This document shows positions 8,209-31,217 of a stretch of DNA of 64,000 bases, piece after piece. The position numbers and the translations under genes are program-made. Each line of letters begins with the position of its first letter. Within the stretch, counting starts at the first letter, position 1. The notes under the pieces were generated by a model, which saw only the letters and a program-made list of their open reading frames with translations, made no database searches and was not told where the DNA came from. Where the stretch lies: assembly GCA_004213955.1 (NCBI GenBank), contig SGZL01000005.1, positions 401-64,400 on the forward strand, read 5' to 3'. The DNA comes from Gammaproteobacteria bacterium (GTDB lineage Bacteria; Pseudomonadota; Gammaproteobacteria; Magnimaribacterales; AG-339-G14).

Positions 8209-8220
8209 TTGTGCGAAGTT

Positions 8221-8251
8221 AAAAAAAAGGCTCCTTTGGGAGCCTTTTTTT
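8221..8251. terminator. Bidirectional rho-independent terminator between the TBDR and gltD
   Basis: A8-GGCTCC-TTTG-GGAGCC-T7 between convergent genes. Confidence 0.9.
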
Positions 8252-8262
8252 ATGAAAGTTTT

Positions 8263-9714
8263 TTATTCTAAGGTTGTTGTCCCCATTAATTCCAGATCTA
8301 TTTCTCTTGCGGCAGCTCGACCTTCATTGATGGCCCAAACCACAAGTGATTGACCGCGACGACAGTCGCCGGCAGCAAAAACTTTAGGATTGGATGTTTT
8401 GTGAATATTATGTTCGGCTTTAAAGTTAGATCTTTCGTCTAATTCAAGTTCCAGATTATTGTTTAAGTAGTGCTCAGGCCCTAGAAAACCCATTGCTAAA
8501 AGAATTAAATCAGCTTTCCAAGTTTTTTCAGTTCCTGGAATTTCTTTAAAATCTTTATCCACTTTAACTGTCTTAATTCCAGTTAGATTTCCATCTTCAT
8601 CTCGAATAAATTCTTTACCAGAGACTGAGTATTCTCTTGGATCTTTACCAAATACTTCTCTGGATTCTTCATGGCCGTAATCCACTTTGTATATCCTCGG
8701 AAATAAAGGCCAAGGGTTATTTTCTAATCGATCTTTTGGTAATTCCGGCATGATTTCAAAGTTAGTCAAAGACTTGCAGCCATGTCTTAGAGAAGTGCCT
8801 AAGCAGTCATTACCAGTGTCACCACCGCCAATAACAATAACGTCTTTATCTTTTGCGCTAATAAATTTTTCATCCGCCAGTTCGCTGTCTAAAAGACTTT
8901 TAGTATTTTCTCCCAAAAACTCCATGGCGAAGTGAACACCCAAGCCGTCTCTATTTGCTATTGGAAGGTCACGAGGTTTGGTAGCACCTGTTGTCAACAA
9001 GACAATATCATTGTCTTCAATGAGGTCGTCCATACTAATAGCATTTTTGTCATTGCCGCCAATATTTGTATTGGTGTGGAATTTGATACCTTCTTGTTCC
9101 ATGATCTCAATTCGCATATCTATAATTGATTTATCAAGCTTCATGTTGGGAATTCCGTACATCATCAAACCACCAATTCGATCAGCCCTTTCGTAGACTT
9201 CGACATTGTGACCCACGCTATTGAGTTGTTGTGCCGCAGATAATCCTGCAGGACCCGAACCGACAATAGCAATCTTACGGTTTGTTCGAACCGATGGGAC
9301 TACAGGTTGAATCCAGCCTGACTCAATACCTTTATCCGCTATAGCAAATTCTAAATTTTTTATTGTTACTGGAGATTCGGTGATGCCTAAAACGCAGGCA
9401 CCTTCACAAACGGCCGGACAAACTCTACCGGTAACTTCTGGAAAGTTATTAGTTTTTAATAATCTTTTAAAAGCTTCTTCCCATTTTTCGTTATAAACCA
9501 AATCATTCCATTCAGGAATTAAGTTGTAAACGGGACAACCTTCACCCGATTGGCAGAAGGGCACTCCACAATTCATACATCTCGAAGCCTGGGTGTTTAG
9601 CAGTGATTCGTCATGATCAGTATAAATTTCCTTAAAATCTATAACTCTATCTTTAGCAGGTCGGTAAGGCTCTACGACTCTTTCGTGTTCTTTGAAACCA
9701 GTAACTTTCCCCAT
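8263..9714 (-). CDS. gltD: Glutamate synthase (NADPH) small subunit
   Basis: MGKVTGF, RCMNCGVPFC, TNNFPEVTGRVCPAVCEGAC, GSGPAGL, IGGGDTGNDC, AGDCRRGQSLVVWAI. Confidence 0.97.
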   Translation of the reverse strand: MGKVTGFKEHERVVEPYRPAKDRVIDFKEIYTDHDESLLNTQASRCMNCGVPFCQSGEGCPVYNLIPEWNDLVYNEKWEEAFKRLLKTNNFPEVTGRVCPAVCEGACVLGITESPVTIKNLEFAIADKGIESGWIQPVVPSVRTNRKIAIVGSGPAGLSAAQQLNSVGHNVEVYERADRIGGLMMYGIPNMKLDKSIIDMRIEIMEQEGIKFHTNTNIGGNDKNAISMDDLIEDNDIVLLTTGATKPRDLPIANRDGLGVHFAMEFLGENTKSLLDSELADEKFISAKDKDVIVIGGGDTGNDCLGTSLRHGCKSLTNFEIMPELPKDRLENNPWPLFPRIYKVDYGHEESREVFGKDPREYSVSGKEFIRDEDGNLTGIKTVKVDKDFKEIPGTEKTWKADLILLAMGFLGPEHYLNNNLELELDERSNFKAEHNIHKTSNPKVFAAGDCRRGQSLVVWAINEGRAAAREIDLELMGTTTLE

Positions 9715-16019: not shown

Positions 16020-18395
16020 ATGTTTTTCAATAAATATTTTTTTATATTACTAATTATCTTCTTACTCCCAATTCATTTTGGTTTAGGTATCTATATTTAT
16101 CTATCTCATGATCTGCCAACAACAGAAGACGTAAGAAATGTGGAGCTCCAAGTTCCTCTTAAGATATTTACTTCCGATGGTAAATTGATCGGTGAATACG
16201 GGGAAATTCATCGAACTAAATTAAATTTTAATGAAATTCCAGAAAATTTAATAAATGCTTTTTTAGCTGCTGAAGACAGCGATTTTTTTACTCACACGGG
16301 AGTAGATTTTCTGAGTCTGCTGAGAGCTACTTACCAATATATAAAAGAAGGAGAAATCATCAGCGGTGGTGGAACCATTACCATGCAAGTGGCGAGAAAT
16401 TATGTGTTAACTAAAGACCAAACCTTCGAGAGAAAGCTCAAAGAGATATTTATGGCCTTTAAGTTAGATTTATCTTTTACAAAAGAAGAAATATTCGAAC
16501 TTTATGTCAATCAAATCTTTCTTGGAAATAGAGCTTATGGTGTTGCAGCAGCATCAGAAATTTATTATGGAAAAGGTTTATCTGAATTGTCTATAGCACA
16601 ATCAGCTATGATAGCTAGTCTGCCTAAAGCACCGTCTCGAATCAATCCAATTGCTAATCCAAAAAGGGCCTTAATTAGAAGAAATTGGGTTTTAAGTAGA
16701 ATGGAATCCTTAGGATATATTGACGAAGATAATTTTTTACAAGCATTTAATGAGCCAATATCTGCCTTTTTTAATGGCATCGGTTCGGAAGTTGAGGCAG
16801 ATTATCTTGCTGAGCAAATACGAAGGTATATGATCCAAAACTATGGTTTATCTGCTTACAAAGAAGGATATAAGGTTTACTCGACTTTAAATTCGTCTTA
16901 TCAAACAGCTGCTGTTAATTCTGTAAGAAGAGGAATAGAGTCTTACGAATCAAGGCATGGCTTCAGAAAACCTGAAAATTATAGTGAATTAATTCCAGAC
17001 GACTTTATCCAGAGAACAGATTTATTTTATAAAGTTGCCTACGATCCAAACAACTTTAAAGACGAGTTTGGAATTAAAAAAGATTTAACTAATCCTCTAG
17101 ATGAACTATTAGACTTTCTAGCCGACCAAGCTGCCTTCAACTCTTTTCAACCAGTACTAGTGCTATCTTCTAAGAATAAGAAGATGACTCTTTTAAACAA
17201 AGACTCAGAAATAATTACCATGGACATAAGTAATTTAATTTCCAATATCAAACCAAAAATAAATGAAAATAAAAAAGGCAAAAATATAGAGAGTTTTTTA
17301 AATTTTTTTGAAGTAGGGGATTTAATTTGGTTGAGATTAGATGAAGACAAAAAATTTGAGATAGCAATGCATCCTGAAGTGCAAAGTGCTCTAGTTAGCA
17401 TCGATCCAAACTCTGGCAAGATTCTTGCTTTAGTTGGCGGCTATAGTTTTAGCTCTAGTAAGTTTAATAGAGCCATGCAAGCTAAACCTCAACTTGGATC
17501 AAATTTTAAGCCTTTTTTATATGCTGCGGCTTTTGAAAACGGCTTTAATCCAGCAACTATAATAAACGATGCTCCGGTTGTATTTGAAGATCAAAATTTA
17601 GAGGAATTTTGGAGACCCAAAAATGCTAGTGGGAAATTTTATGGACCAACTAGATTAAGAGAAGCATTGTTGCAATCGAGAAATGTAGTCACTGTAAGAT
17701 TGCTAAATGATCTAGGAATATCTAAAACAAAAAACTACCTCACAAGATTTGGATTCGAAAGAGACAGTTTGCCTGAAGATTTATCAATGGCATTAGGATC
17801 TTATGGAATTAGCCCTTACAAAAACGCAGAATTTTTCTCCATTTTTGCTAATGGAGGAAAAAAAATTAATCCGACTTTCATTGAAAAAATCGTAGATAAG
17901 GATGGTAATGAGATACTTTTTGACCAAAAAGACGCTTCGAAAAAAACTTTGGAACAATGGATAGGAAATTCTTTAACTGTAGAACAGACCTTTGCTATTG
18001 ACCCTAGAGTTTCATTTGTTGTAACTGATATTTTAAGAGAAGCAACACGAAGGGGCACCGGAAGAGGGATTAAAAAACTCCAAAGAGACGATTTTGCTGG
18101 GAAAACAGGTACGACTAATAACTCCGAAAGCACCTGGTTTACTGGGTACAACAATAAGATTTTAACAACAGTTTGGTTCGGCTATGATCAACCAAGGTCT
18201 TTAGGACAAAAAGAATATGGTAGTACTACTGCACTACCAATCTGGTTGGGCTATATGGAAGACATTGTCGATTCGATCGAGTATTCTCCCCCTACAATTC
18301 CTGCGAATCTAATTGCAAAAAAAATAAATCTAGCTAATGGATTAGATGCCAGCCCTTCAGATCAGAATACAGCGTTTGAATATTTTTTCGATTAG
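16020..18395 (+). CDS. mrcA: Penicillin-binding protein 1A (bifunctional glycosyltransferase/transpeptidase)
   Basis: N-terminal TM, AAEDSDFFTH, GGTITMQVARN, RKLKE, LYVNQIFLG; transpeptidase motifs SNFK, SRN, KTG. Confidence 0.95.
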   Translation: MFFNKYFFILLIIFLLPIHFGLGIYIYLSHDLPTTEDVRNVELQVPLKIFTSDGKLIGEYGEIHRTKLNFNEIPENLINAFLAAEDSDFFTHTGVDFLSLLRATYQYIKEGEIISGGGTITMQVARNYVLTKDQTFERKLKEIFMAFKLDLSFTKEEIFELYVNQIFLGNRAYGVAAASEIYYGKGLSELSIAQSAMIASLPKAPSRINPIANPKRALIRRNWVLSRMESLGYIDEDNFLQAFNEPISAFFNGIGSEVEADYLAEQIRRYMIQNYGLSAYKEGYKVYSTLNSSYQTAAVNSVRRGIESYESRHGFRKPENYSELIPDDFIQRTDLFYKVAYDPNNFKDEFGIKKDLTNPLDELLDFLADQAAFNSFQPVLVLSSKNKKMTLLNKDSEIITMDISNLISNIKPKINENKKGKNIESFLNFFEVGDLIWLRLDEDKKFEIAMHPEVQSALVSIDPNSGKILALVGGYSFSSSKFNRAMQAKPQLGSNFKPFLYAAAFENGFNPATIINDAPVVFEDQNLEEFWRPKNASGKFYGPTRLREALLQSRNVVTVRLLNDLGISKTKNYLTRFGFERDSLPEDLSMALGSYGISPYKNAEFFSIFANGGKKINPTFIEKIVDKDGNEILFDQKDASKKTLEQWIGNSLTVEQTFAIDPRVSFVVTDILREATRRGTGRGIKKLQRDDFAGKTGTTNNSESTWFTGYNNKILTTVWFGYDQPRSLGQKEYGSTTALPIWLGYMEDIVDSIEYSPPTIPANLIAKKINLANGLDASPSDQNTAFEYFFD

Positions 18396-18976
18396 ACAAA
18401 AATAGTTTTTTTGATTAGTTCCCAATGTTCCTGCCATGAGGTAACTGGGCTATTTTTAAAATTACTTCTTAGAAAACTTTGAATCTGTCCTTCCATGCAA
18501 GTCATTAAAAGATCGGAACAGCTTGCAGAATTAATGGCTAACTTTTTCTTAGTATCTCTTTCATAAGCCTGAAAAGACTGTTTGATTTCCACATTTAGTT
18601 TTTCCAAAATTAAAGATATTTTGTCGTCTATTTTTGCTTCGGCTGCACTTAACGCTTGCTTGTTGATAATTTTCGCAAACCCTTTGTTTGTTTCTAGAAA
18701 AGTTAAAATAAGAGTAACTATTAGCCCTGGAATCTCATCTGATGATTGATTTTGCTTCATTGTTTCTATTCTTGGAAAAATATTCGATTCAAAGAAAATT
18801 ACCATTTCTTCATAAATTTTTCTTTTGCTTGGGAAATGTCTGTATATCGCTGCTTCAGTTATGTTCGTTCTTCTGGCCAATTCTGCAGTGGTAATTTTTA
18901 CAGGAGTTTTTTCTTCAAGCATTTCTGCAAGAGTCTGCATGATCTGAATTTTTCTTGATACTTTACTCTCTGCCAT
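18392..18976 (-). CDS. slmA: Nucleoid occlusion factor SlmA (TetR family)
   Basis: RKIQIMQTLAEMLE, ITTAELA, TEAAIYRHFPSK; position in the algC-argB-slmA block. Confidence 0.85.
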   Translation of the reverse strand: MAESKVSRKIQIMQTLAEMLEEKTPVKITTAELARRTNITEAAIYRHFPSKRKIYEEMVIFFESNIFPRIETMKQNQSSDEIPGLIVTLILTFLETNKGFAKIINKQALSAAEAKIDDKISLILEKLNVEIKQSFQAYERDTKKKLAINSASCSDLLMTCMEGQIQSFLRSNFKNSPVTSWQEHWELIKKTIFV

Positions 18977-19837
18977 CTATCTATTAATCAAAGTGCCTAC
19001 ACCTTTTTGAGTAAGAATCTCTAACAATACAGCATGAGGAACTCTTCCATCAACTATGTGAGCATAATTTACACCTTGATTTAAGGCATCTATTGCAGCC
19101 GTAAGTTTAGGCACCATTCCGCCTTTAACTATTGTTTTATTTTTTAATAGTTTTTTCGAATCTTTAAAACTTATTTGAGAAATTTTCTTACCACTCTCAT
19201 TTTTAATTCCTAAGACATCTGTCAAAAGGATTATTTTTTCTGCCTTTATAGTTCCGGCAACAAAACATGCAACCTCATCAGCGTTTATATTAAGAGGTGT
19301 TTTTTTTGGGCCCCATCCAATTGGGGAGATGATGGGAATCTGATGAGACGTTAAAGCTTTTAAAAGTTTTGATTTATTTATTTTTGTGATTTGACCAACT
19401 TCTCCCAGCGATTTATTTTTCGATTTTATTGCATTGATAAGACCCATTTTTTTTCCAGCAAATGATTTTCCTTGTCCACCCCATGAATTAATTAACTTCT
19501 TAATTTCAGGATTAATTTGTAGATCAAGAACTTTTTGAATTACTTTTACCATCTCAGGAGTAGTAACTCTGATTCCATTTTTGAATTTAAAATCAAGTTT
19601 GAGTCGATCCAATTCTTTACCTATTTGAGGACCTCCTCCGTGAACAATGACGGGATTTATTCCAACTGTTTTCATTAGCACTACGTCTCGAGCAAAGCTT
19701 TTTCTAAGATAACTATCTCGCATGGCACTACCCCCGTATTTAATCACAATGGTTTTTCCTGAAAATTTTTGTATGTAAGGCAGTGCTTCAGAAAGAACTT
19801 TAGAGATATTAATAGCCGATTTTTTTGAGATGCTCAT
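18977..19837 (-). CDS. argB: Acetylglutamate kinase
   Basis: EALPYIQKFSGKTIVIKYGGSAM, VHGGGPQI, NINAD, GGMVPK, DGRVPHA. Confidence 0.96.
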   Translation of the reverse strand: MSISKKSAINISKVLSEALPYIQKFSGKTIVIKYGGSAMRDSYLRKSFARDVVLMKTVGINPVIVHGGGPQIGKELDRLKLDFKFKNGIRVTTPEMVKVIQKVLDLQINPEIKKLINSWGGQGKSFAGKKMGLINAIKSKNKSLGEVGQITKINKSKLLKALTSHQIPIISPIGWGPKKTPLNINADEVACFVAGTIKAEKIILLTDVLGIKNESGKKISQISFKDSKKLLKNKTIVKGGMVPKLTAAIDALNQGVNYAHIVDGRVPHAVLLEILTQKGVGTLINR

Positions 19838-19842
19838 GATCT

Positions 19843-21216
19843 TTACTTTATGAAATTCAGTTTATCGTCTATTTTGAGCAAAGCGTTTTGAAAAAGTTCT
19901 TTTATTTGCATAAGTTTTTTTTCAGTGTTTGCTTCAAATCTTAGTACTAAAGCAGGAGTTGTATTTGAAGCTCTGATCAATCCCCATGAATCTTCTTCTT
20001 CAAGCCTTAACCCATCTAACAAAATACTATTATAACCTTCAGGTTTGAAATTATTTTTTAATTCCTCAACAACTCTAAACTTTTCAGTATCATTTATTGA
20101 TATTTTTATTTCAGGTGTACTAAACATCTTTGGAATCTTTTTAAAAACTTCATGGGTTGAAATATTTTGTGTTGATAATATTTCTAACAATCTTAAGCTT
20201 GCAAAGATTCCATCATCAAAACCATACCAATTATCATTGTAAAAAATATGACCGCTCATTTCGCCTCCTAGAATCGCACCAGTTCTAGTGATTTCGGATT
20301 TTATGAAAGAATGACCAGTTTTGGTCATGATTGGTATGCCATTATTTCTTCTAATTACCTGTTCGAGTTGTTTAGAGCATTTCACATCAAAAACAATTTT
20401 CCCTGATTTATTTTTTCTCAAAATATCTTCTGCCATTAGAGCTAAATATCTGTCAGGAAATATCATTTCTCCTTCACTATCTATAACACCAAGTCTGTCT
20501 CCATCACCATCAAAAGCAATACCCAAATCAGCATTTTCTTTTTTAACTGTTTCGATTAATTTTGATAAATTTTTTGGTTCACTTGGATCGGGGTGATGAT
20601 TAGGAAAATTTCCGTCAACTTCGCAAAATAATTCTATTAATTCAGAAGAGTAGTTTCTTAAAATTTCTGGTCCTAACACTCCACCTGAGCCGTTGCCGCA
20701 ATCCAGAACAATTTTTAATTTATTTTTTATATTAATTTTTGTTGAAATTTTTTTTACGTAGGTTTCGTTAAAACTTTCTTTTGATAATTTTCCGGATCCA
20801 ACTCTAAAGTCACTTTGTTCAATTTTAAGTTTAAGATTTTGTATGTCATCTTCTTTTAGCGAGGAATTATTTATGACAATTTTAAATCCATTATATTCTT
20901 TTGGGTTGTGACTACCTGTAATCATTACTCCATTCTTGGTAACACCTTCAAATGTCGCGAAATATAGTAGCGGTGTATGCACTAAGCCAATAAAGATGAC
21001 ATCGCAGCCTGTTGCTAAAATACCTTCTATAAAATGGTCCGATACTTCTTTGCCTGAAATTCTTCCATCTCTTCCAACGTATATTTGTTTAGAATTTTCA
21101 TCTAATACTTGCGAACCTACAGCCTGACCAATTTTATATATTAGATCTTGAGATAACTCTCTCTCAAAAATCCCTCTGATATCGTAGGCTCTAAAAATTT
21201 CAGAATTAACTTTCAT
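19843..21216 (-). CDS. algC: Phosphomannomutase/phosphoglucomutase
   Basis: FRAYDIRG, TGSHNP, DGNFPNHHPDP, FDGDGDR, GEMSGH, RASNT. Confidence 0.93.
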   Translation of the reverse strand: MKVNSEIFRAYDIRGIFERELSQDLIYKIGQAVGSQVLDENSKQIYVGRDGRISGKEVSDHFIEGILATGCDVIFIGLVHTPLLYFATFEGVTKNGVMITGSHNPKEYNGFKIVINNSSLKEDDIQNLKLKIEQSDFRVGSGKLSKESFNETYVKKISTKINIKNKLKIVLDCGNGSGGVLGPEILRNYSSELIELFCEVDGNFPNHHPDPSEPKNLSKLIETVKKENADLGIAFDGDGDRLGVIDSEGEMIFPDRYLALMAEDILRKNKSGKIVFDVKCSKQLEQVIRRNNGIPIMTKTGHSFIKSEITRTGAILGGEMSGHIFYNDNWYGFDDGIFASLRLLEILSTQNISTHEVFKKIPKMFSTPEIKISINDTEKFRVVEELKNNFKPEGYNSILLDGLRLEEEDSWGLIRASNTTPALVLRFEANTEKKLMQIKELFQNALLKIDDKLNFIK

Positions 21217-21259: not shown

Positions 21260-22183
21260 ATGACTAATTTCGAAGAAAAAGATGGATTCATCTGGATGGA
21301 CGGTGAGTTTGTTGACTGGTCACAAGCTAAAGTACATGTTTTGACTCATACTTTACATTATGGTCTTGGTGTATTTGAAGGGGTAAGAGCTTATTTAACA
21401 GATGAAGGCACAAAAATTTTTAGGTTAGAGGATCATACTAACCGTTTGTTTGAATCTGCTGAAGCAGTAAATATGAAAATCCCATTTTCTAAAGAACAAT
21501 TAAATGACGTTCAAAAAGAGATTTTTAAAGTCAATAACCTTGAAGAGGGCTATATACGTCCTATGTGTTTTTATGGTGCTCAGGGGATGGGTTTAAGAGC
21601 AGACAACTTAAAGACGCATTGTATTGTTGCCGCTTGGGAATGGCCAAGTTACATGTCACCAGAAGCTTTTGATGAAGGCATAAAAATAAAAATCTCTTCT
21701 TATAAAAGACAAACCAATAATTTAGTTTCTAGATCAAAAGTTAACGGAAACTATGTAACCTCTATTATGGCTTTGCAAGAAGCCATGCAGGAGGGTTTTG
21801 ATGAAGCACTTCTTCTCGATGACGAGGGTAATATTTCAGAAGGATCCGGAGAAAATTTGTTTTTAGTCAAAGAAGGAGAGCTTTTTACTCCTGATTTAGC
21901 TGCTTCTTTGAATGGAATTACTCGAAAAAGCATAATTAGTTTAGCGCAAGAAGATGGAATTGAAGTGAGAGTAAAAAAAATAAATCTTACAGAAATTTTA
22001 AATGCGGATGAACTTTTTTTTACCGGTACTGCCGCCGAAGTGGTTCCTATAAGGACAGTGGATCAGAATACAATCGCAAGCGGAAAACGAGGACCTATTA
22101 CTACTATTCTGCAAAAAAAATATTTTGATCAAGTCAGAGGAAAGCGAGATTCTTTTTCTGAGTGGTTAACACCGATTGAATAA
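21260..22183 (+). CDS. ilvE: Branched-chain amino acid aminotransferase
   Basis: LHYGLGVFEG, SKVNGNY, EGSGENLF, LNGITR, GTAAEV. Confidence 0.95.
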   Translation: MTNFEEKDGFIWMDGEFVDWSQAKVHVLTHTLHYGLGVFEGVRAYLTDEGTKIFRLEDHTNRLFESAEAVNMKIPFSKEQLNDVQKEIFKVNNLEEGYIRPMCFYGAQGMGLRADNLKTHCIVAAWEWPSYMSPEAFDEGIKIKISSYKRQTNNLVSRSKVNGNYVTSIMALQEAMQEGFDEALLLDDEGNISEGSGENLFLVKEGELFTPDLAASLNGITRKSIISLAQEDGIEVRVKKINLTEILNADELFFTGTAAEVVPIRTVDQNTIASGKRGPITTILQKKYFDQVRGKRDSFSEWLTPIE

Positions 22184-22199
22184 TTATTAGTTAATTGAC

Positions 22200-23435
22200 A
22201 TGTCAAAATTGAAAGTAGCTTTACTAAGTTACAGAAGTAATCCCTATTCTGGCGGGCAAGGAATTTATGTCACTCACTTAAGTAAGGCCTTAGCAGATTT
22301 AGGTCATCAAGTTACTGTATTTTCAGGACCTCCTTACCCAAATCTTGATCCAAAAGTAAGCTTGGTTAAAGTTCCAAGTTTAGACTTATATAGCAGATCA
22401 AATAAATTTTCGGACGTCTCGATATCAGAATTAATAAACCCATTGAACTTTTTTGAGTGGCTTAGCATCAATTCAGGAGGATTTCCTGAGCCTTATACTT
22501 TTGGGAAAAGATTAAAAAAAATCTTCAAGAAGAGATTAAACGAATTTGATGTAGTTCACGACAATCAGAGTCTTTGCTATGAGTTGTTAGATTTTCAAAA
22601 AAAAATCCCTCTAGTAACTACTATTCATCATCCTATTTCTAAGGACTTAAAATATGAATTACAAAGCATCAATTCGATATTTCTCAAGCTTTTAAAAATT
22701 AGGTGGCACTCTTTTTTAAAGATGCAAATGCAAGTTGCAAAACGTTTAAAAAAAATTATTGTCCCTTCTTTATCTTCTAAAGAAAATATTGAGGAAGACT
22801 TTAAAGTTGAATATCAAAATATGTCAGTTATTTTAAATGGCATTGATTCAAGTATTTTTTTTCCAGATCAAAATAAAACTATTGCAAAAAGAATAGTTAC
22901 GATCGCAAGTGCGGATGTGCCTTTAAAGGGATTAGACTTTCTCCTCAAGGCTTTTGCAAATCTCACGAACCATTTACCTGACCTTGAGCTTCATGTCATT
23001 GGCTCTTTTTCAGAAGGCGGGCATACCGATAGAAAAATAAAAAATTTAAAAATAGAAAAAAAAGTCTTTTTTAAAAGTGATTTGAGTTTCACAGAAGTAA
23101 GAGATATGTACTGTTCAGCTGATATAGTAGTAATCCCTTCTTTATATGAAGGATTTGGATTTGCTGTTGGAGAAGCAATGGCATGCAAAAAAGCTGTGGT
23201 GACAACTAACGGTGGTGCAATTCCTGAAGTAATTGGTGATTGTGGAATTGTCGTAGACGCTGGGAATTCAGAACAACTTGAAAAGGGTATTTTGCAGTTA
23301 TTAAATGATGAAAATTTAAAAAATGATTTGGCTGACAAGGGATACCAGCGTGCATTAGATGTATTAAGTTGGAAAAAAGTGGCTTTATCAGTAACTGATA
23401 TTTATGAAGATGCTATCAATACATTCAGGAATTAA
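22200..23435 (+). CDS. GT4 glycosyltransferase, ManT-like (MMP alpha-1,4-mannosyltransferase family)
   Basis: KVALLSYRSNPYSGGQGIYV, FSGPPYP, GGFPEP, DVVHDNQSL, TIHHPI, SADVPLKG, PSLYEGFG...EAMAC. GT4 assignment is secure; ManT orthology is from recalled motifs and gene context. Confidence 0.85.
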   Translation: MSKLKVALLSYRSNPYSGGQGIYVTHLSKALADLGHQVTVFSGPPYPNLDPKVSLVKVPSLDLYSRSNKFSDVSISELINPLNFFEWLSINSGGFPEPYTFGKRLKKIFKKRLNEFDVVHDNQSLCYELLDFQKKIPLVTTIHHPISKDLKYELQSINSIFLKLLKIRWHSFLKMQMQVAKRLKKIIVPSLSSKENIEEDFKVEYQNMSVILNGIDSSIFFPDQNKTIAKRIVTIASADVPLKGLDFLLKAFANLTNHLPDLELHVIGSFSEGGHTDRKIKNLKIEKKVFFKSDLSFTEVRDMYCSADIVVIPSLYEGFGFAVGEAMACKKAVVTTNGGAIPEVIGDCGIVVDAGNSEQLEKGILQLLNDENLKNDLADKGYQRALDVLSWKKVALSVTDIYEDAINTFRN

Positions 23436-24157
23436 TGCAAACAATAAGATTTAATAATTTTGAGTTTCATCCCAATCAAAAGATTTTAGATATTGGATGC
23501 GGGCAAGGGCGACATTGTTTTGGAGCCTACATGCAAGCGAATTTAGATGTTTTTGGAATAGATATGGGAAAGGAAGATGTAAAAAAAGCAAAAGAAAATT
23601 TTGATCAATTTGATGAAGATTTAGGAAAAAAAAGCTGTAATTTCCTCGTCGGTAATGCAAAAAAATTACCTTTTGCAGAGAATACTTTTGATCATGTGGT
23701 TTGTTCTGAAGTTCTGGAGCATATAATAGATTTTGAATCTGCCTTAAAAGAAATTAAAAGAGTTTTAAAACCTAATGGGACTTTTGCTCTAAGCGTGCCA
23801 AAATTTCTCCCTGAATGGATTTGTTGGAAATTGAGTAGAGATTATCAAAACGAACCAGGAGGCCATGTAAGGATTTTCAAATATAAAGAATTGAAAAATT
23901 CCGTGAAATCTTTAGGTTTTGCTTTCAAAAAAAGACATTGGGCGCATGCCTTGCACTCTCCTTATTGGTGGATGCAATGTTTGTTTTGGAATACAAAAGA
24001 AAAATCTTATCTGATTAAGCTTTACCATTCTTTTTTGGTTTGGGACATGACCAAAAATCCCTTGCTAACTAGAGTATTAGAATCATTGCTCCAACCATTA
24101 ATCGGTAAAAGTGTAGTTATGTATTTTGAAAACGAAGAGAAAAAGATTGAAAAATAA
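23435..24157 (+). CDS. Class I SAM methyltransferase, MeT3-like (putative mannose 3-O-methyltransferase)
   Basis: LDIGCGQGRH, SEVLEHI, PEWICWKLS...GGHVRI, HALHSPYWW, YHSFLVWD, PLIGKSVVMY; coupled to the GT4 gene (TAATG). Confidence 0.82.
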   Translation: MQTIRFNNFEFHPNQKILDIGCGQGRHCFGAYMQANLDVFGIDMGKEDVKKAKENFDQFDEDLGKKSCNFLVGNAKKLPFAENTFDHVVCSEVLEHIIDFESALKEIKRVLKPNGTFALSVPKFLPEWICWKLSRDYQNEPGGHVRIFKYKELKNSVKSLGFAFKKRHWAHALHSPYWWMQCLFWNTKEKSYLIKLYHSFLVWDMTKNPLLTRVLESLLQPLIGKSVVMYFENEEKKIEK

Positions 24158-25136
24158 AAATTCTTTAGCTCCTCTAGGTAAGTATATTTCTGAATGCCAA
24201 AATCTCGATGGTTCAATAGCTTGGGAGCCAGATGGAAAAATAGACCCCTGGGATCATGTTGAGTCTTTAATGGGTTTAAATGTGCTTGATATGAATGTTG
24301 AAGCTAAGGCTGGATTTGAATGGCTAAAATTAACACAACTATCAGATGGATCTTGGTATTCCGAGTACAACGGAAATAAAGTAATTAATTACAATAAAGA
24401 AACAAACTTTGCTGCCTACATTTCCTCTGGCGCCTTGCATTATTATCTTCATTTTAATGATGAAGAATTTTTGGAAGACCTATGGCCTTTTTTAAAAAAA
24501 TCTGTTGATTTTGTCTTGTCTGGCCAAACCTCGGAGGGGGATATCTTATGGGCCAAAGATAAGAATGATAAATGGATGGACGACTCTTTAGTTACTGGAT
24601 GTTCATCAATTTATAAAAGTTTGAAAGATTTCATAAGAATTTCTGAAATTTTAGGAAAAAAGAATATTTCTTTAGCACAAGAACTGGAAGCTCTTCACAA
24701 TTCACTTAGAAATAAGCCAGAACGATTTGATAGAACTTGGAAAAGCAAATCAAGATACAGTATGGACTGGTACTATCCAGTTCTCTGTGGAGTATATGAT
24801 GCTGATGAATCAAAGAAAATTATAAAAGATAAGTGGGCGAACTTCGTCGTGCCTGGCCTTGGGTGTAAATGTGTTGAAGAAGAGCCCTGGGTAACTATTG
24901 CGGAAACATGTGAACTAATTTTGGCTTTAAATAAAATTGGGGAAAAAAAACTTGCATCGAATTTATACGATGAAATTTTAAATCTTATGGATAAAGAAGA
25001 TAATTTATTTTGGACAGGATTTGTTTATAAAGATCAGAAGTATTGGCCAGTTGAAAAACCAAGTTGGACCGCTGCGGCAGTAATTTTAGCGGCTAATTCA
25101 TTATTTGAATTGAATTCAAATTTCGATTTTTTTTAA
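24147..25136 (+). CDS. (alpha/alpha)6-barrel 'prenyltransferase-like' protein, MmpH-like endo-mannosidase
   Basis: DPWDHVE, QLSDGSW, ETNFAAY, LVTGCSSIY, RYSMDWYYPVL, PWVTIAETCEL, WPVEKPSWTAAAVILA. Start probably TTG 24147 (ORF track gives 24126). Confidence 0.78.
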   Translation: MKNKNSLAPLGKYISECQNLDGSIAWEPDGKIDPWDHVESLMGLNVLDMNVEAKAGFEWLKLTQLSDGSWYSEYNGNKVINYNKETNFAAYISSGALHYYLHFNDEEFLEDLWPFLKKSVDFVLSGQTSEGDILWAKDKNDKWMDDSLVTGCSSIYKSLKDFIRISEILGKKNISLAQELEALHNSLRNKPERFDRTWKSKSRYSMDWYYPVLCGVYDADESKKIIKDKWANFVVPGLGCKCVEEEPWVTIAETCELILALNKIGEKKLASNLYDEILNLMDKEDNLFWTGFVYKDQKYWPVEKPSWTAAAVILAANSLFELNSNFDFF

Positions 25137-25721
25137 AATCGCGAGACTTTTAACAAGAGATATCTCTTTAAATTTTTTAGACTTTTTTGCCTTACTAAAT
25201 ATTTCATATGGTGGTCTTCCTCCATCCTCTGGATTTGGGAAAACATCATGTATTAATAGGTATCCATTTTTAACAATATGCGGTGACCAATTTTCATAAT
25301 CAGCTAGCGCAGCTTCCATGCTATGACCGCCATCAATAAAGACCATTCCCAAAGGTAATTTCCATTCTTTAGTCAATTCTTTTGAAGTACCAATCAATGG
25401 CAAAATATAATTTCCTAGATTTGAATTTTTTAAATTTTTAAGGAATTCGGGCAAAGTGTTAAAGCTTGATACGTTTTTATCATAGAGTTCACTATCATGA
25501 TATTCTTCACCTAATTGATGTTCTTCGGATCCGGTGTGATGATCGATGGTAAATAAGAGATTGTTAGATTTTTTGCATGCTTCGCCTATAATCAAAGCTG
25601 ATTTGCCACAGTATGTTCCTATTTCTAAACAAGGTCCTAAATCAGAGCATTTGGTTGCAATTTTTGCTAATTCATTGCCTTCAATATTGTCAAGAAAACC
25701 TTTAACAGTGTTTAATGTCAT
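25116..25721 (-). CDS. Class I SAM methyltransferase (Methyltransf_24-like), MeT1-like 1-O-methyltransferase
   Basis: VKGFL, EIGTYCGKS, DHHTGSEEHQLGEEYHD, FIDGGH, IHDVFPNPEDGGRPPY. Confidence 0.82.
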   Translation of the reverse strand: MTLNTVKGFLDNIEGNELAKIATKCSDLGPCLEIGTYCGKSALIIGEACKKSNNLLFTIDHHTGSEEHQLGEEYHDSELYDKNVSSFNTLPEFLKNLKNSNLGNYILPLIGTSKELTKEWKLPLGMVFIDGGHSMEAALADYENWSPHIVKNGYLLIHDVFPNPEDGGRPPYEIFSKAKKSKKFKEISLVKSLAILKKIEI

Positions 25722-25745
25722 TTTTTAAATATTAAATCATTCAAT

Positions 25746-26648
25746 ATGTTTTCAAAAGTTATTAGAAAAAAAGTTTTTGCTGATTCAGAAGAAGGTTACT
25801 TTTCTTATATTGAATTAGAAGGCCTTGATAAAAGTGAGCCGTTAGTTTTTTTTCATGCGACTGGTCTTAACTGCGAAACTTATTTAGATCTATTAGAAAA
25901 AATTTATTTAATGTTGGACTCAAAAAAAACCATCATTGCTCTTGACCAGAGAGGTCATGGTAAAACAACTTTAGCCGCTGACCCAGATAGACTTAAATCC
26001 TGGGATCAATATGCAGTTGATGCAGATGTATTTTTACGAACAATGAATATTTCGTCTGCAATTTTTTTTGGACACTCAATGGGTTCTATAGTTGCATCAG
26101 AAGTAATTAAGCGCGGTGATTTTAAAGTTTCACACTTAATAATGCTTGATCCTGTACTTTTTTATGATCCATACACGGCAATTTTTTCTGAAATCAAAAA
26201 TAAATTTATTCTTTTAAGATCAAACGATAAAGTAGTCGGCGCTGCCAAAAGACGAGATAAGTTTGAAAGTTTTGAACAAGCGACCATGCATTATGAAGGA
26301 AGAAGTATGTTTAAAACCTGGCCTTTGGAATCTCTTAAAAATTACTTAGCAGGTGGTTTAAGTGAAGAAGATTCAGGATTAAAACTTTCTTGTTCGCCTA
26401 CATGGGAGTCTAAGACTTTTGAAACTGTTTCTTTTAACACTTATCGGACTTTAAATTGTTTAAACTTGCCTACTCTAATTTTGAGAGCTGAGCACTTTTC
26501 TACATTTTCTAGTAAAGGCATGAAATATTTATCAAAAAAAAATAATTTTGAAGTCATTGAGGTTGAAGGCTCACATTTTTTTCCTATAGAAAATAGTAAA
26601 AAGACTTCAAATTTAATTCAAAAATTTATTTCCCAAACTAATGACTGA
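25746..26648 (+). CDS. Alpha/beta-fold hydrolase
   Basis: FFHATG, DQRGHG, GHSMG nucleophile elbow, GSHFFP catalytic His. Confidence 0.88.
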   Translation: MFSKVIRKKVFADSEEGYFSYIELEGLDKSEPLVFFHATGLNCETYLDLLEKIYLMLDSKKTIIALDQRGHGKTTLAADPDRLKSWDQYAVDADVFLRTMNISSAIFFGHSMGSIVASEVIKRGDFKVSHLIMLDPVLFYDPYTAIFSEIKNKFILLRSNDKVVGAAKRRDKFESFEQATMHYEGRSMFKTWPLESLKNYLAGGLSEEDSGLKLSCSPTWESKTFETVSFNTYRTLNCLNLPTLILRAEHFSTFSSKGMKYLSKKNNFEVIEVEGSHFFPIENSKKTSNLIQKFISQTND

Positions 26649-27366
26649 TACGGTAAATATTATTTGTATGAAGTGGGGCAAGAAATACGACTCGTCTTAT
26701 GTGAATAAACTTTTTAATATGGTTTCAAGAAATCTAGATCGTGATTTTAGATTTATCTGTTTAACAGACGACAACTCGGGTTTTTTAAACTCTATTGAGT
26801 CCTTTGATTTGCCAAAGTTGAATTTACCTGATGGAATTCCAGAACGTGGATGGATGAAATTGGTAACCTTTTCAGAAAATTTATTTGATATCAAAGGCCA
26901 GTGTTTATTTTTAGACTTAGATTTGATTATAGTAAACAGGATAGACGAGTTATTTGAACTTGAAGGAGATTTTTTTATCATTAAAGACTTCATAAGAAAA
27001 GATTCTACTGGAAACAGTTCAGTTTACAGATTTGAGATGGGAAAATTTTTTGACGTTTTAGAATACTTTCAGCAAAATTTCTTGGAAATAAAATCAAAAT
27101 ATAGGAATGAACAAGAATATTTGTCAGATTATATGAAAAAAAATCACTCTTTAGATTATTGGCCCATTCAGTGGTGCCAAAGTTTTAAAAAAAATTGTGT
27201 TCAGAAAGGTTTCAAACAACTTTTTTATGCTCCTCTTTTACCGCAAGAGGCAAAGATAATTATTTTTCACGGCAAACCAAACCCACCCGATGCTTTAAAA
27301 GGCAAAAGTGGCAAATGGTATAGAAAAGTTTTACCAACCCCATGGGTTGCAGATCACTGGAGATAA
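26641..27366 (+). CDS. Putative GT-A-fold glycosyltransferase (DxD, GT8-like)
   Basis: ICMKWGKKY...YVNKL, FICLTDD, FLDLDLII, GNSSVYRF, NEQEY, FHGKPNP. Confidence 0.72.
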   Translation: MTDTVNIICMKWGKKYDSSYVNKLFNMVSRNLDRDFRFICLTDDNSGFLNSIESFDLPKLNLPDGIPERGWMKLVTFSENLFDIKGQCLFLDLDLIIVNRIDELFELEGDFFIIKDFIRKDSTGNSSVYRFEMGKFFDVLEYFQQNFLEIKSKYRNEQEYLSDYMKKNHSLDYWPIQWCQSFKKNCVQKGFKQLFYAPLLPQEAKIIIFHGKPNPPDALKGKSGKWYRKVLPTPWVADHWR

Positions 27367-28183: not shown

Positions 28184-29034
28184 TGATTATTGTAGAATCG
28201 ATAGAACAGCTCTCTCATAATCCTTTTAAATCTCCTTTTGCATTAATCCCAACCATGGGAAATTTACATTCGGGGCATATAAATCTACTAAATTTAGCAA
28301 GCAATAAAAATTATAATCCGGTAGTTTCAATTTTTGTGAATCCTTTGCAGTTTGGGCCTAGCGAAGATTTAGAAACTTACCCACGATCTTTAGAACAAGA
28401 TTTAGAAATTTTGAAAGAACATAATTGTCACGGGGTCTTTGTTCCAAAACAAGAAGAAATTTTAAAAAATATCGAAAATCTTATTGCCCCAATGTCTAAT
28501 AAGTTGTGCAGTAAATCTAGACCAGGACATTTCGATGGCGTTATAACAATAGTGAATAGGCTGTTTGAAGTAACTAAACCCGAGGCTTGTGTTTTTGGTA
28601 TGAAAGATTTTCAACAACAATTAATAATCAAACATTTAATAAGACAAAAAAAATATGAAATTGAATTTCTATCAGCTCCAACTGAAAGAGATAAAAATGG
28701 ATTGGCTCTCTCATCTAGAAATAATTATTTACAAGAAAGAGAAAAAATTGAAGCATCTGTAATTTTTAAATCTCTTTCGGATATGGGCTCTGAATTAAAA
28801 TTGCTCTCGCAAACTAATAAAAAAAATTTTTTGACCGAATTAGAATCAATTCAAAAAAAATATACTAAAAAAATTGAAGAACAAGGTTTTGAAATAGATT
28901 ACTTAGAGCTTTCAGATCCAGAAACCTTAGAAAAATTTGAATTTAATTCAAATAGAATCTTGATTGCTATTGCTGTTTTTTTTAAGAAAGTGAGATTAAT
29001 AGACAATCTAGTTATAGATTTAGCCTCTTCTTAA
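28183..29034 (+). CDS. panC: Pantoate-beta-alanine ligase
   Basis: PTMGNLHSGH, SIFVNPLQF, SRPGHFDGV, FGMKDFQQ, GLALSSRN, RLIDN. Confidence 0.95.
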   Translation: MIIVESIEQLSHNPFKSPFALIPTMGNLHSGHINLLNLASNKNYNPVVSIFVNPLQFGPSEDLETYPRSLEQDLEILKEHNCHGVFVPKQEEILKNIENLIAPMSNKLCSKSRPGHFDGVITIVNRLFEVTKPEACVFGMKDFQQQLIIKHLIRQKKYEIEFLSAPTERDKNGLALSSRNNYLQEREKIEASVIFKSLSDMGSELKLLSQTNKKNFLTELESIQKKYTKKIEEQGFEIDYLELSDPETLEKFEFNSNRILIAIAVFFKKVRLIDNLVIDLASS

Positions 29035-29910
29035 TAAATCTTGAGGATAAAAAGATTCTTCGCCTTCGGGTCTATTTTTGAATCTTCTATGCGACCACAA
29101 ATAGTTTTCTGGGTTTTTAGAAATAAATTCCTCAATTTCATAATTTATTTGTCTTAAATCTTTTTCTATATCAACGCCATCTAGTAATAATTTGTCTAAG
29201 TGAGCTACATATTTAAATCCTTTCTTTTCAAGAGAAAATAAATAAATATCACAATTTGATCTTTTTTTAGCAATGTAAGGAAATTTCACCGTTAATGCTT
29301 TATGACCAAAAAAATTAACAAAGATAGAGTTCTTATAGCCGTAATCCTGATCTGGAGCATACAGACAAGCTTTTCCTATTTTTAAATAATTTAGAAGCTC
29401 AAGAATTTCCTTTGGATTGAAAATTCTTTCAGTAAATTTCTTTCGACTTGCTTTAAATAAATTATCAACAATCTTATTACTTTGTGGTCTAGCCATTCCT
29501 GATACAGGCATAAATAACGAAGCTGCTCTAACAACCAAATCTAAATTTGGAGTATGCATGAATAAAAGTAATTTTCCTTTTGAAGAACTAAGATCGTTTG
29601 AAGTTTTTTTCAAATCTTCAAAATTTACAATTAGCTTTTGTAGTTTTTTATCAGAGGCCCAGAAAGCATTTAAAAATTCAAAAAGAGATTCTCCCAGCCT
29701 TATAAAACTTTGTTTTAAAATTGAGTTTATTTCGGTTTCGCTTTTTTTAGGAAAGCATTTTTTTAAATTCCATCTTGAAATTTCTCTTCTTTTTTTAAAA
29801 GACATAAAAAAAATAATGCCTAATAACCGCCCGAGAAAATATTGGAGTCTTTGTGGCAAGATACTCAATATTTTTAATAATAAATATATAAAATATTCCA
29901 GTATGCTCAT
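29020..29910 (-). CDS. lpxL: Lipid A late acyltransferase (LpxL/HtrB family)
   Basis: HTPNLD (HxxxxD/E), APDQD, FVNFFG, PENYLWSHRRFKNRP; divergent from waaA. Confidence 0.85.
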   Translation of the reverse strand: MSILEYFIYLLLKILSILPQRLQYFLGRLLGIIFFMSFKKRREISRWNLKKCFPKKSETEINSILKQSFIRLGESLFEFLNAFWASDKKLQKLIVNFEDLKKTSNDLSSSKGKLLLFMHTPNLDLVVRAASLFMPVSGMARPQSNKIVDNLFKASRKKFTERIFNPKEILELLNYLKIGKACLYAPDQDYGYKNSIFVNFFGHKALTVKFPYIAKKRSNCDIYLFSLEKKGFKYVAHLDKLLLDGVDIEKDLRQINYEIEEFISKNPENYLWSHRRFKNRPEGEESFYPQDLLRRG

Positions 29911-29984
29911 ATTTTTATTTTAACTTACTCAAAAGTACTAAATTAATTATTTTGTATATATCCGTCTGATAAAATGAAACAGAA

Positions 29985-31217
29985 ATGATTTTCTATAATC
30001 TTTTTTTGTATTTCCTTTTTCCTTTTGCAATCTTACGCTTGTTCTCAAAAAAAGAATTTAATGCTGCGCAAATCTCTAGAATTAAAGAAAGATTGGGTCC
30101 CAAGGAGTATACAAATTGCAAAGAACCTATATGGATTCATGCAGTTTCAGTTGGGGAGGTAAAGGTAGCTGCTTTGTTAGTTAAAGAATTAAAAAAAAAA
30201 TATCCTAATTCAAATTTTCTAATCACTACCTCCACAGTCACGGGATCAAATGAAGTAAATAAAAATTTTAGTACTGAAATAGCGCATCAATATCTTCCCT
30301 ACGATTTAAATAGTTTTATAAAAAAATTTTTGAGCAGTCTAAATCCTAAATGTTTGATTTTGGTTGAAACGGAAATTTGGCCAAATTTAATTAATAATTG
30401 TAATAGAGCTAACATACCAGTAATTCTTCTCAACGGTCGAATGTCTGAAAAGTCATTAAGCAAATATCTAAAATTCCCAAAATTTTTCAACAAAATCTTT
30501 TCAAAATTAGATTTAGTCGTGGCGCAAAGTAAGAGTGATTTAGAGAATTTTAAAAAACTTGGCGTTGATTCAAAATCTATTACCGAAGATTATTCTCTAA
30601 AATTTTCTAAATCATCTAGTGAAGAAAGCTTTGAGACTATAAAAAAGAATCCACGCGAATCTTCAAAAAAAATTATCGTCTGTGCCAGCACCCATCCAAA
30701 CGAAGAAGTTTTTTTAATAGATAGTTTTTCAAAACTCGATAATACTAAATTTCATTTAGTTTTGATTCCCAGACATACGCATAGAGCTTCTGAAATAACA
30801 GAAATTTTTGATGAAAAAAAACTAAGCTATGGAATATTTTCGGATTTTTTAGATTTAAATTCAGAAATAACACTTGTTGATAAAATGGGCTATGTTGAAT
30901 CTTTCTTTAAGATTGCCGACATCGCTTTTATAGGAGGGACCATAGTCCCTCATGGCGGTCAAAATTTTCTAGAAGCTGTGAAATACGGGTTGCCAATATT
31001 TTCAGGACCACATACTTACAATTTCAAGGATATTTCTGAAGATTTGCAAAGGCTTCAAATTTTAAATATCATAGATTCCATAGAGGATTTAGCGTTGGAA
31101 TGGGGAGAATTTCCACACGATTCACAAATCAAAGAGCTAAGTCAAAACTATCTTTCATCTAGACAGGGCGCCGTCCAGAGATCAGTTGAGAAACTAGTCG
31201 TTTTAGTGAAGGATTAG
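29985..31217 (+). CDS. waaA: Kdo transferase
   Basis: WIHAVSVGE, YLPYD, ETEIWPN, NGRMS, ASTHPNEE, PRH, GGQNFLE. Confidence 0.93.
   Translation: MIFYNLFLYFLFPFAILRLFSKKEFNAAQISRIKERLGPKEYTNCKEPIWIHAVSVGEVKVAALLVKELKKKYPNSNFLITTSTVTGSNEVNKNFSTEIAHQYLPYDLNSFIKKFLSSLNPKCLILVETEIWPNLINNCNRANIPVILLNGRMSEKSLSKYLKFPKFFNKIFSKLDLVVAQSKSDLENFKKLGVDSKSITEDYSLKFSKSSSEESFETIKKNPRESSKKIIVCASTHPNEEVFLIDSFSKLDNTKFHLVLIPRHTHRASEITEIFDEKKLSYGIFSDFLDLNSEITLVDKMGYVESFFKIADIAFIGGTIVPHGGQNFLEAVKYGLPIFSGPHTYNFKDISEDLQRLQILNIIDSIEDLALEWGEFPHDSQIKELSQNYLSSRQGAVQRSVEKLVVLVKD

Follow-up and report, generated by a model that had tools for sequence, protein, structure and literature searches.

A Four-Gene Cluster in a SAR86 Genome

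Four adjacent genes at positions 22200-25721 of a 64,000-nucleotide stretch of DNA (contig SGZL01000005.1, positions 401 to 64,400; hereafter the window) resemble the cluster with which actinobacteria make the methylmannose polysaccharide (MMP). The source genome, assembly GCA_004213955.1, is that of a SAR86 bacterium and comprises 1,057,244 bases in 28 contigs (93% complete, 0.4% contaminated). All four open reading frames (ORFs) are intact in the ORF listing of this interval. The first (22200..23435, plus strand) encodes a ManT-like family 4 glycosyltransferase (GT4) of 411 amino acids, a predicted alpha-(1->4)-mannosyltransferase according to PDB, Pfam, and reciprocal tblastn comparisons. 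Its stop codon has one base in common with the ATG of the second gene (TAATG), which runs from 23435 to 24157 on the plus strand and encodes a MeT3-like class I S-adenosylmethionine-dependent methyltransferase of 240 amino acids, a putative 3-O-methyltransferase on the basis of Pfam, synteny, and a reciprocal best hit. The third gene (24126..25136, plus strand, TTG start) overlaps the second by 32 nucleotides, and its 336-residue product is predicted from PDB comparison to be an MmpH-like (alpha/alpha)6-barrel endo-alpha-mannosidase. The fourth (25116..25721) lies on the minus strand, convergent with the MmpH-like gene, the two 3' ends overlapping by 21 nucleotides; it encodes a MeT1-like Methyltransf_24 enzyme of 201 amino acids, predicted from PDB and Pfam matches to be a 1-O-methyltransferase that caps the reducing end.

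The initial annotation, made from the letters of the window, had proposed that these genes form the MMP cluster manT-meT3-mmpH-meT1. The four adjacent ORFs and every motif that it quoted are found in the translations of this interval; only the spacing of two motif strings differs, with a gap of four residues in LLSYRS-NPYS-GGQG and of three in GSEEHQ-LGE-EYHD instead of two in each. Its description of a host-like base composition also agrees with the data, as the G+C content of the cluster is about 0.33 (0.335 and 0.330 in two 2-kb bins), inside the ranges of the window (0.29-0.41) and of the assembly contigs (0.305-0.374), and so does that of a heavily pruned genome, the assembly being 1.06 Mb.

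There is no curated model for these four families, and the names obtained from Pfam and NCBIfam are generic. Pfam finds Glycos_transf_1 and Glyco_transf_4 in the GT4 gene, Methyltransf_31/11/25 in the MeT3-like protein, and Methyltransf_24 in the MeT1-like protein, while the MmpH-like protein gives a weak GH116 (DUF608) match and otherwise almost no signal; all NCBIfam scores fall far below their cut-offs (e.g., BshA, 92 vs. 274 bits). A phmmer comparison against all PDB sequences was far more specific. The ManT-like protein matches 7qsg_A over residues 4-406 (E 8.7e-89; next chain 8.3e-17), a structure deposited under a generic name which we take to be the Mycobacterium hassiacum ManT of Maranha et al. 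2023. The MmpH-like protein matches 7qsj_A, "Methylmannose polysaccharide hydrolase (MmpH)," over residues 19-328 (E 3.3e-77), its sole other match being at E 0.73, and the MeT1-like protein matches 6g7d_A, as well as 6g80 and 6h40, over residues 5-198 (E 8.6e-50; next 0.0021), entries for the M. hassiacum MeT1. The PDB matches to the second gene include only generic class I methyltransferases and no MeT3 chain. Since no solved orthologue exists in the PDB, the orthology of the MeT3-like gene was tested by context and reciprocity.

For the reciprocal tblastn search, as called for in the initial annotation, the proteins of two Mycobacterium loci and one Streptomyces locus were compared with the whole SAR86 genome, and they retrieved the window genes as sole or top matches. 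ManT scored 302-312 bits, with no second match at E 1e-3; MeT3 gave 204-206 bits for the window gene versus 39-48 for the next; MmpH (250-253 bits) and MeT1 (180-183 bits) each had a single match in the genome. PDB matches, common gene order, and reciprocal best hits thus uphold the proposed identity, and on sequence grounds the four genes are best regarded as orthologues of the actinobacterial MMP cluster, at 38-46% identity to the Mycobacterium genes. Membrane and signal segments are absent from all four proteins (maximum 19-residue Kyte-Doolittle mean 0.96-1.31), which are predicted to be soluble.

Catalytic and Substrate-Site Residues

The alignments comprised 91 rows for MmpH, 81 for ManT, and 67 for MeT1. 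For mycobacterial ManT, the Lys240Ala variant is described as inactive and Glu313Ala as strongly impaired, and a Glu321Ala variant was made and tested (PMC9883506). All 81 rows have the same residues as the window protein at the equivalent positions (K243, E317, and E325), and the equivalents of the sugar-side residues Glu313, Gly314, and Phe315 are likewise without variation. For MmpH, activity is reported to be abolished by Glu262Ala and drastically reduced by Asp47Ala and Asp50Ala, Glu262 acting as the catalytic base and Asp47 and Asp50 being candidates for the acid, with Trp49, Phe102, Thr163, Met215, Tyr219, and Glu265 in the substrate site (PMC9883506). The catalytic residues Asp47, Asp50, and Glu262 are kept in the window protein as D40, D43, and E260, and the substrate-site residues as W42, F95, T157, M213, Y217, and E263. 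Most of the ManT and MmpH columns checked are invariant across the alignments, and the residues of both enzymes that were tested by mutagenesis are, as judged by alignment, all kept in the window proteins. In MeT1, 34 columns are at least 97% identical over the 67 rows; near-invariant positions are D60, H61, H62, G64, S65, E66, E67, and Q69, D130, G131, and H133, and H158 and D159. A separate observation concerns Alphaproteobacteria, in which the MmpH Asp50 equivalent (D43 in the window, a candidate catalytic acid) is Asn in 19 of 19 rows (loci L040-L098), being Asp in the other 72 of 72.

Conservation and Descent within SAR86

The survey of SAR86 that had been proposed was carried out with MmpH, which has a homologue in 39 of the 41 surveyed genomes of the order (a count that includes the genome of the window). 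It is present in 29 of the 30 high-quality genomes, in all 12 genera, and in each of the families f1 (22/24), f2 (6/6), f3 (5/5), and f4 (5/5); the two genomes with no match are 81% and 92% complete. The reading frame is intact in 38 of the 39 matching genomes. The remaining homologue, L006 (G002:C10:31309-32313), from a genome of the same genus that is 76% complete, carries one in-frame TAG which could be a sequencing error or a lineage pseudogene. All 20 SAR86 loci that were inspected have the four genes in a single arrangement. The genomic site is likewise shared. PMM and ilvE adjoin the cluster in nine of ten long loci, with argB or a SlmA-like gene beside them in those that extend far enough; the other flank, in family f1, holds an alpha/beta hydrolase and panBC.

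Trees were built from concatenated ManT, MeT3, and MmpH with FastTree (76 rows) and with IQ-TREE under LG+C20+F+G4 (42 rows). Both place the window within the family f1 clade (support 99 and 100, respectively). The families f1 and f2 group together in the IQ-TREE tree only (98), and f3 and f4 form deeper branches. Alphaproteobacteria, a "Delta" group composed of Syntrophales and Desulfarculus, and Actinomycetota make up separate clades (100). Counting against a fuller reading of these trees, their sequences are uneven in composition and the trees are unrooted; because of the uneven composition and since no root was inferred, only two conclusions are drawn, namely vertical descent within the order and no recent import from actinobacteria. 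The genes of the cluster have thus been inherited vertically within the order, and the pattern indicates an old residence in SAR86. The long residence and selection that the initial annotation had argued from base composition and genome size gain more support than it could have known, from presence in 39 of 41 genomes and four families, a conserved site, and the agreement of the gene tree with the families.

Distribution and Gene Order outside SAR86

A scan of public contigs with MmpH matched at least 600 stretches, 599 of which were confirmed. We compared the best 80 loci, from SAR86 (11), other Gammaproteobacteria (5), Alphaproteobacteria (19), the "Delta" group (20), and Actinomycetota (25), the last including Mycobacterium parascrofulaceum, two more Mycobacterium, Nocardia, Streptomyces, and Embleya. 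The order ManT, MeT3, MmpH on the same strand is found in 74 of the 80 loci and in all five taxon groups; it is also that of the Mycobacterium loci L100, L092, and L078, as well as of Nocardia and Streptomyces. All four genes lie within the locus in 55 of the 80, many of the incomplete loci being short or having the match near a contig end. Other carriers among these 80 are Parvibaculum, Tepidicaulis, OCS116, Rhodobiaceae, and related Alphaproteobacteria, along with Smithella, Syntrophus aciditrophicus, other Syntrophales, Desulfarculus, and a few other Gammaproteobacteria. Of 300 genomes sampled evenly across the Gammaproteobacteria, 9 have MmpH, three of them of the SAR86 order and the others (6 of 297) each from a different family. 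The MmpH family as a whole comprises 1193 representatives at 50% identity (E up to 0.001; 1.84 billion proteins). Among the 120 closest relatives listed, the sole named protein is labeled "prenyltransferase" by NCBI, which suggests that the family goes unrecognized in marine genomes.

A full-text literature search yielded no paper joining methylmannose with SAR86, nor, among the papers listed, any pairing polymethylated polysaccharides with Parvibaculum, Syntrophus, or Smithella. The MMP literature, by titles and the starts of abstracts, contains no report of MMP outside Actinobacteria, supplements and the 2019 MeT1 paper being beyond that search; PMC9883506, whose text is free of the words "proteobacteria," "phyla," and "outside," names homologues from actinobacterial genera only. 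Within the same scope, this agrees with the initial remark that MMP had not been shown outside Actinobacteria.

Proposed Product and Mechanism

MMP is built of 11-14 residues of 3-O-methylmannose, joined by alpha-(1->4) bonds and capped by a 1-O-methyl group, and polymethylated polysaccharides form complexes with long-chain fatty acids or acyl-CoA. According to PMC9883506, ManT extends oligomannosides of at least three units and prefers methylated acceptors, mycobacterial MmpH cleaves mature MMP and so supplies oligomers for reuse as primers, and an mmpH deletion mutant of Mycobacterium smegmatis makes no MMP. The mechanism put forward here is transferred from this work on M. hassiacum and M. 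smegmatis. In SAR86, the ManT-like GT4 would lengthen oligomannoside primers from a nucleoside diphosphate (NDP)-mannose donor, the MeT3-like enzyme would methylate the chain at position 3, and the MeT1-like enzyme would methylate the anomeric 1-OH, leaving no free reducing end. The MmpH-like endo-mannosidase would then cut finished chains into oligomers that prime new ones, a form of "self-recycling." Since a 1-O-methyltransferase is present, the product would be a free glycan and not one linked to a lipid carrier, and because the whole set, hydrolase and end-capping enzyme included, is kept in genomes of about 1 Mb, the same self-priming cycle and a free soluble chain may be expected. The product is probably an MMP-like methylated mannan, that is, a short, soluble, cytoplasmic, self-primed, and O-methylated alpha-(1->4)-mannan-like chain.

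Sugar-Nucleotide Donor Supply

Several observations weigh against this reading. MeT3 activity is putative even in mycobacteria, where the enzyme is written "pMeT3" (PMC9883506). The search of the genome for a GDP-mannose pyrophosphorylase (ManC), which the initial annotation had advised, detected no canonical enzyme in this 93%-complete assembly and only partial matches to TIGR01479, namely the C-terminal cupin parts (last 110 positions) of two ORFs, at 92.8 and 60.8 bits versus a cut-off of 373. The three NTP_transferase genes over the Pfam cut-off are RmlA-like, GlmU-like, and MurU-like. The MurU-like gene was considered as ManC and rejected, as it adjoins an APH-type kinase and is read as an amgK-murU pairing, an arrangement known from peptidoglycan recycling. 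No type I phosphomannose isomerase (PMI) was found in the genome. Gmd, whose presence would have hinted that GDP-mannose is used, was likewise not found, its sole match having 64 bits versus a cut-off of 415.

A phosphomannomutase (PMM)/phosphoglucomutase (PGM) of the AlgC type, a possible source of mannose-1-phosphate, is encoded in the genome at 19843-21216 on the minus strand. It has four PGM_PMM Pfam domains and scores 451 bits with the NCBIfam model PgmG, under the cut-off of 600. The initial annotation had placed it about 1 kb upstream of the cluster, which is correct (984 bases from the ManT-like gene, with ilvE in between), and had tied it to mannose-1-phosphate supply. The gene stands in a housekeeping block together with argB and ilvE, and its connection with the cluster is conjectural.

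A different type of gene came to light as a candidate for the donor supply. The two ORFs with partial TIGR01479 matches encode fusions, of 258 and 268 amino acids, which combine a cytidylyltransferase-like (HIGH-motif) domain with a mannose-6-phosphate isomerase cupin domain (CTP_transf_like plus MannoseP_isomer); the former is located at C12:169-942 of genome G000 (= L002:169-942, minus strand), and the latter, a second copy, at L001:1495-2298 on contig C16 of the same genome (minus strand). Public data hold at least 7983 relatives of the fusion, named only "cytidyltransferase-like." Among the 41 SAR86-order genomes, canonical ManC is absent in 34. The 258-residue fusion is complete in 29, all of them without a full-length ManC, and a full-length ManC-type gene is present in 7 (4 over the cut-off), all of which lack the fusion; 2 more have fragments at contig ends. 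Because the two distributions are complementary, the fusion could do the job of ManC with a different nucleotidyltransferase fold. It may represent a non-orthologous replacement of GDP-mannose pyrophosphorylase, and we infer it to be the best candidate for donor supplier. Three MmpH-bearing genomes, G027, G036, and G040, show no sign of ManC or of the fusion, and PF01050 domains are absent from them altogether. The four-gene cluster itself was seen in G027, and G027 and G036 each have an NTP_transferase of about 300 amino acids. These three genomes either are evidence against a mannose donor or reflect assembly gaps.

Alternative Explanations

In an alternative scenario the same enzymes and the same logic would serve another polymer or donor, with ADP, CDP, or UDP as the carrier nucleotide or with some hexose in place of mannose, so that the product would not chemically be MMP. 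Besides the lack of canonical ManC, here and in most of the order, and of a PMI-cupin domain in G027, G036, and G040, one ManT position speaks for this scenario. PMC9883506 proposes, from modeling, that Asp293 contacts N2 of the guanine base in GDP-mannose. The position is Asp in 24 of 25 rows from Actinomycetota, 9 of 18 from Alphaproteobacteria, and 3 of 16 from the "Delta" group, but all 20 rows from SAR86 have another residue (F, H, K, Q, E, R, or N), which in the window ManT is Phe297. Given this lost Asp293 and the complementarity between fusion and ManC, the nucleotide is perhaps other than guanine, and a donor with a different base may be in use. Nevertheless, the ManT sugar-side residues and the MmpH substrate site are kept, which argues for the same backbone, and the fusion, with its PMI-cupin domain, in 29 genomes devoid of full-length ManC points to mannose. 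We consider that a product other than MMP is unlikely, though it is the alternative that we take most seriously. A role in the cell envelope, with the four genes decorating the lipopolysaccharide (LPS) core or another surface glycan, would be suggested by the surroundings of the cluster in parts of the order. In family f2 and genus g3 it is embedded among genes for HldE, an RfaP-like kinase, WaaC, LpxL, and a second GT4 (L021:421-3023 and 6698-9093; L023:2138-3481 and 7925-8878), and in the window genes for an LpxL-like acyltransferase and the Kdo transferase WaaA (29020-31217) lie just past panBC, 3-4 kb downstream. Yet the immediate neighbors in the window are ilvE, an alpha/beta hydrolase, and panBC, and the four-gene unit is also found in Actinomycetota, which are not known to make LPS, and, among unrelated neighbors, in other phyla. 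Moreover, there is no flippase, ligase, signal peptide, or membrane segment, and the predicted 1-O-methyltransferase would block the reducing end needed for attachment to a carrier. An envelope glycan is, in our view, quite improbable.

The barrel protein could also be a catabolic, glucoamylase-type hydrolase of imported oligosaccharides, its neighbors being unrelated to it. A weak match to the NCBIfam "oligosaccharide amylase" (E 1.8e-7, 30 bits, cut-off 821) is in line with this, as is the statement of "glucoamylases (sga1)" for most SAR86 in PMC11582366. The genome has no Pfam match to glycoside hydrolase family 15 (GH15) anywhere, so the "sga1" call may itself refer to the MmpH-like gene. 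Set against the weak amylase match are the MmpH match at E 3.3e-77, the fixed position of the barrel gene between a GT4 and two methyltransferases across five taxon groups, and the absence of a signal peptide and of an adjacent transporter; we judge a catabolic function to be very improbable. Finally, the family was first described in Actinobacteria and its closest solved structures are mycobacterial, which might suggest a recent horizontal arrival or actinobacterial contamination with no function in SAR86. The host-like G+C content of 0.33, the same genomic site over four SAR86 families, intact frames in 38 of 39 matching genomes, an identity of only 38-46% to the actinobacterial genes, and the separate clade of Actinomycetota (100) all contradict it. 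Order-wide presence, common locus, and tree refute this explanation, to which we attach next to no probability.

Possible Role in Lipid Metabolism

MMP has been proposed to sequester fatty-acyl-CoA (PMC9883506), and beta-oxidation is described as central to SAR86 carbon metabolism, with expanded lipases and acyl-CoA dehydrogenases (PMC11582366, PMC3358033). Other carriers of the cluster include syntrophic degraders of alkanes and fatty acids, going by titles and abstracts. Furthermore, at least 10 acyl-CoA dehydrogenase matches were counted in 32 of the 297 non-SAR86 Gammaproteobacteria genomes and in 6 of 6 of those positive for MmpH, from six families (hypergeometric P = 1e-6), in an exploratory test whose threshold of 10 was picked post hoc and in which matches were counted up to 12 per genome, and are thus not copy numbers; G287 is unscored, and the 297 include three genomes flagged as unpublished (G079, G180, and G334, with 3, 3, and 1 matches). 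Weighing the other way, family f4 keeps MmpH in 5 of 5 genomes, yet its G027 has only 4 acyl-CoA dehydrogenase matches, and the loss of MMP in the M. smegmatis mmpH mutant is reported to slow growth only at 15 °C (PMC9883506). Nor did recurrent fatty-acid or mannose-supply genes appear among 116 flanking ORFs of 26 non-SAR86 loci (longest non-overlapping ORFs of at least 130 amino acids within 2.4 kb), a crude ORF calling that may miss genes; the recurrent families were B12-binding radical SAM proteins (7 ORFs), alpha/beta hydrolases (5), and hexapeptide transferases (5). The initial annotation had suggested an acyl-CoA carrier or buffer, and the support for such a role is correlative. The role that we favor, in which the polymer would wrap around long acyl chains, as fatty acids or acyl-CoA, in a cell centered on beta-oxidation, has in our estimation somewhat less than an even chance of being right. 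An aid to lipid handling in the cold is an alternative.

Neighboring Genes and Genomic Setting

An alpha/beta hydrolase of 300 amino acids (25746..26648, plus strand; Pfam Abhydrolase_1) is divergent from the MeT1-like gene. It stands beside MeT1 in 14 of 14 family f1 loci and was not found by tblastn in six loci of families f2-f4; an accessory role, in de-esterification or acylation, is possible. Between this gene and panB lies a 241-residue protein with no Pfam or NCBIfam match (26641-27366, plus strand), which a feature-based atlas places with clusters auto-named "predicted glycosyltransferase" and, with a lower score, with GT8-like clusters. Among sufficiently long loci it occurs only in L025 and L027, the closest relatives of the window (MmpH identity 65-66%). 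On the other side of the cluster, the housekeeping context includes a PBP1A-like gene (16020-18395) and argB (18977-19837), both recognized by reading of the translation, and a SlmA-like TetR regulator (18392-18976). Contigs of seawater metatranscriptomes (5 runs, 2 studies) contain 0.26-0.43 of the sampled words of window positions 21260-26648, ilvE included, and are counted as no evidence of expression.

The Syntrophales loci show two additional genes downstream of MmpH, preceding MeT1 where MeT1 is in the locus: a 240-residue ORF (5 loci) and an ORF of 523-533 residues (7 loci), the latter presumably corresponding to the seven ORFs that match B12-binding radical SAM proteins. The stretches concerned are L045:7099-9403, L063:7110-9404, L069:7135-9489, L082:7057-9399, and L102:7040-9456. 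These genes may represent an additional methylation step in that lineage.

Significance

What emerges is a known pathway in a new and ecologically important host range, possibly with a different donor supply. The physiological role of MMP and of the mycobacterial methylglucose lipopolysaccharide (MGLP) has been unsettled for 50 years, and species of Parvibaculum and Syntrophus are cultivable. A SAR86 isolate is in culture as well (PMC11582366). MMP and MGLP have been called "unique" to mycobacteria (PMC2674218), but SAR86 is a very abundant ocean bacterium, and a supposedly mycobacterial molecule would perhaps be far more widespread. The complete pathway counts as a core trait of SAR86, whose genomes have shed most dispensable genes, and this dominant ocean lineage would contain an unrecognized intracellular polymer. 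SAR86 offers a natural experiment in minimal cells, in which MMP, whatever its function, is worth about 3.5 kb, or 0.3% of a genome of about 1 Mb. The fusion is a candidate new sugar-nucleotide enzyme, and the polymer might be one microbial origin of the methyl sugars that occur in the dissolved organic matter of the sea (PMC4817625, with reference to Quan and Repeta 2007). As a broader conjecture, which we regard as doubtful, polymethylated mannans might be a widespread cytoplasmic "acyl-chain chaperone" of lipid and hydrocarbon users (SAR86, Parvibaculales/OCS116, Syntrophales such as Smithella and Syntrophus, and mycolate actinobacteria), most SAR86 obtaining their donor NDP-mannose from the fusion that displaces ManC.

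Comparison with Known Systems

The SAR86 MmpH-like protein differs from GH15 glucoamylases and glucodextranases in giving no Pfam GH15 match. MGLP, the other cytoplasmic polymethylated polysaccharide of mycobacteria proposed to sequester acyl-CoA (PMC9883506), differs from MMP in sugar, linkage, acylation, and gene set; genes of the MGLP type did not come up here, no search having been aimed at them. A related MMP outside Mycobacterium is the acetylated MMP (AMMP) of Streptomyces griseus, for which a homologous cluster is described (PMC9883506). The three Streptomyces loci match in the order of ManT, MeT3, and MmpH, and in two of them MeT1 lies at a distance of about 4 kb; AMMP is actinobacterial and bears acetyl groups, and SAR86 family f1 has an alpha/beta hydrolase beside MeT1. 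The closest counterpart is the MMP cluster of M. hassiacum and M. smegmatis (ManT 7QSG, pMeT3, MmpH 7QSJ, MeT1 6G7D; Maranha et al. 2023, PMC9883506). The SAR86 host, a marine gammaproteobacterium with a 1-Mb genome, departs from it in having Phe for Asp293 in ManT and no classical GDP-mannose pyrophosphorylase. Nevertheless, the two clusters agree in their four families and in gene order, and at 38-46% identity the SAR86 proteins, predicted to be soluble, keep the ManT and MmpH residues whose importance was tested by mutagenesis.

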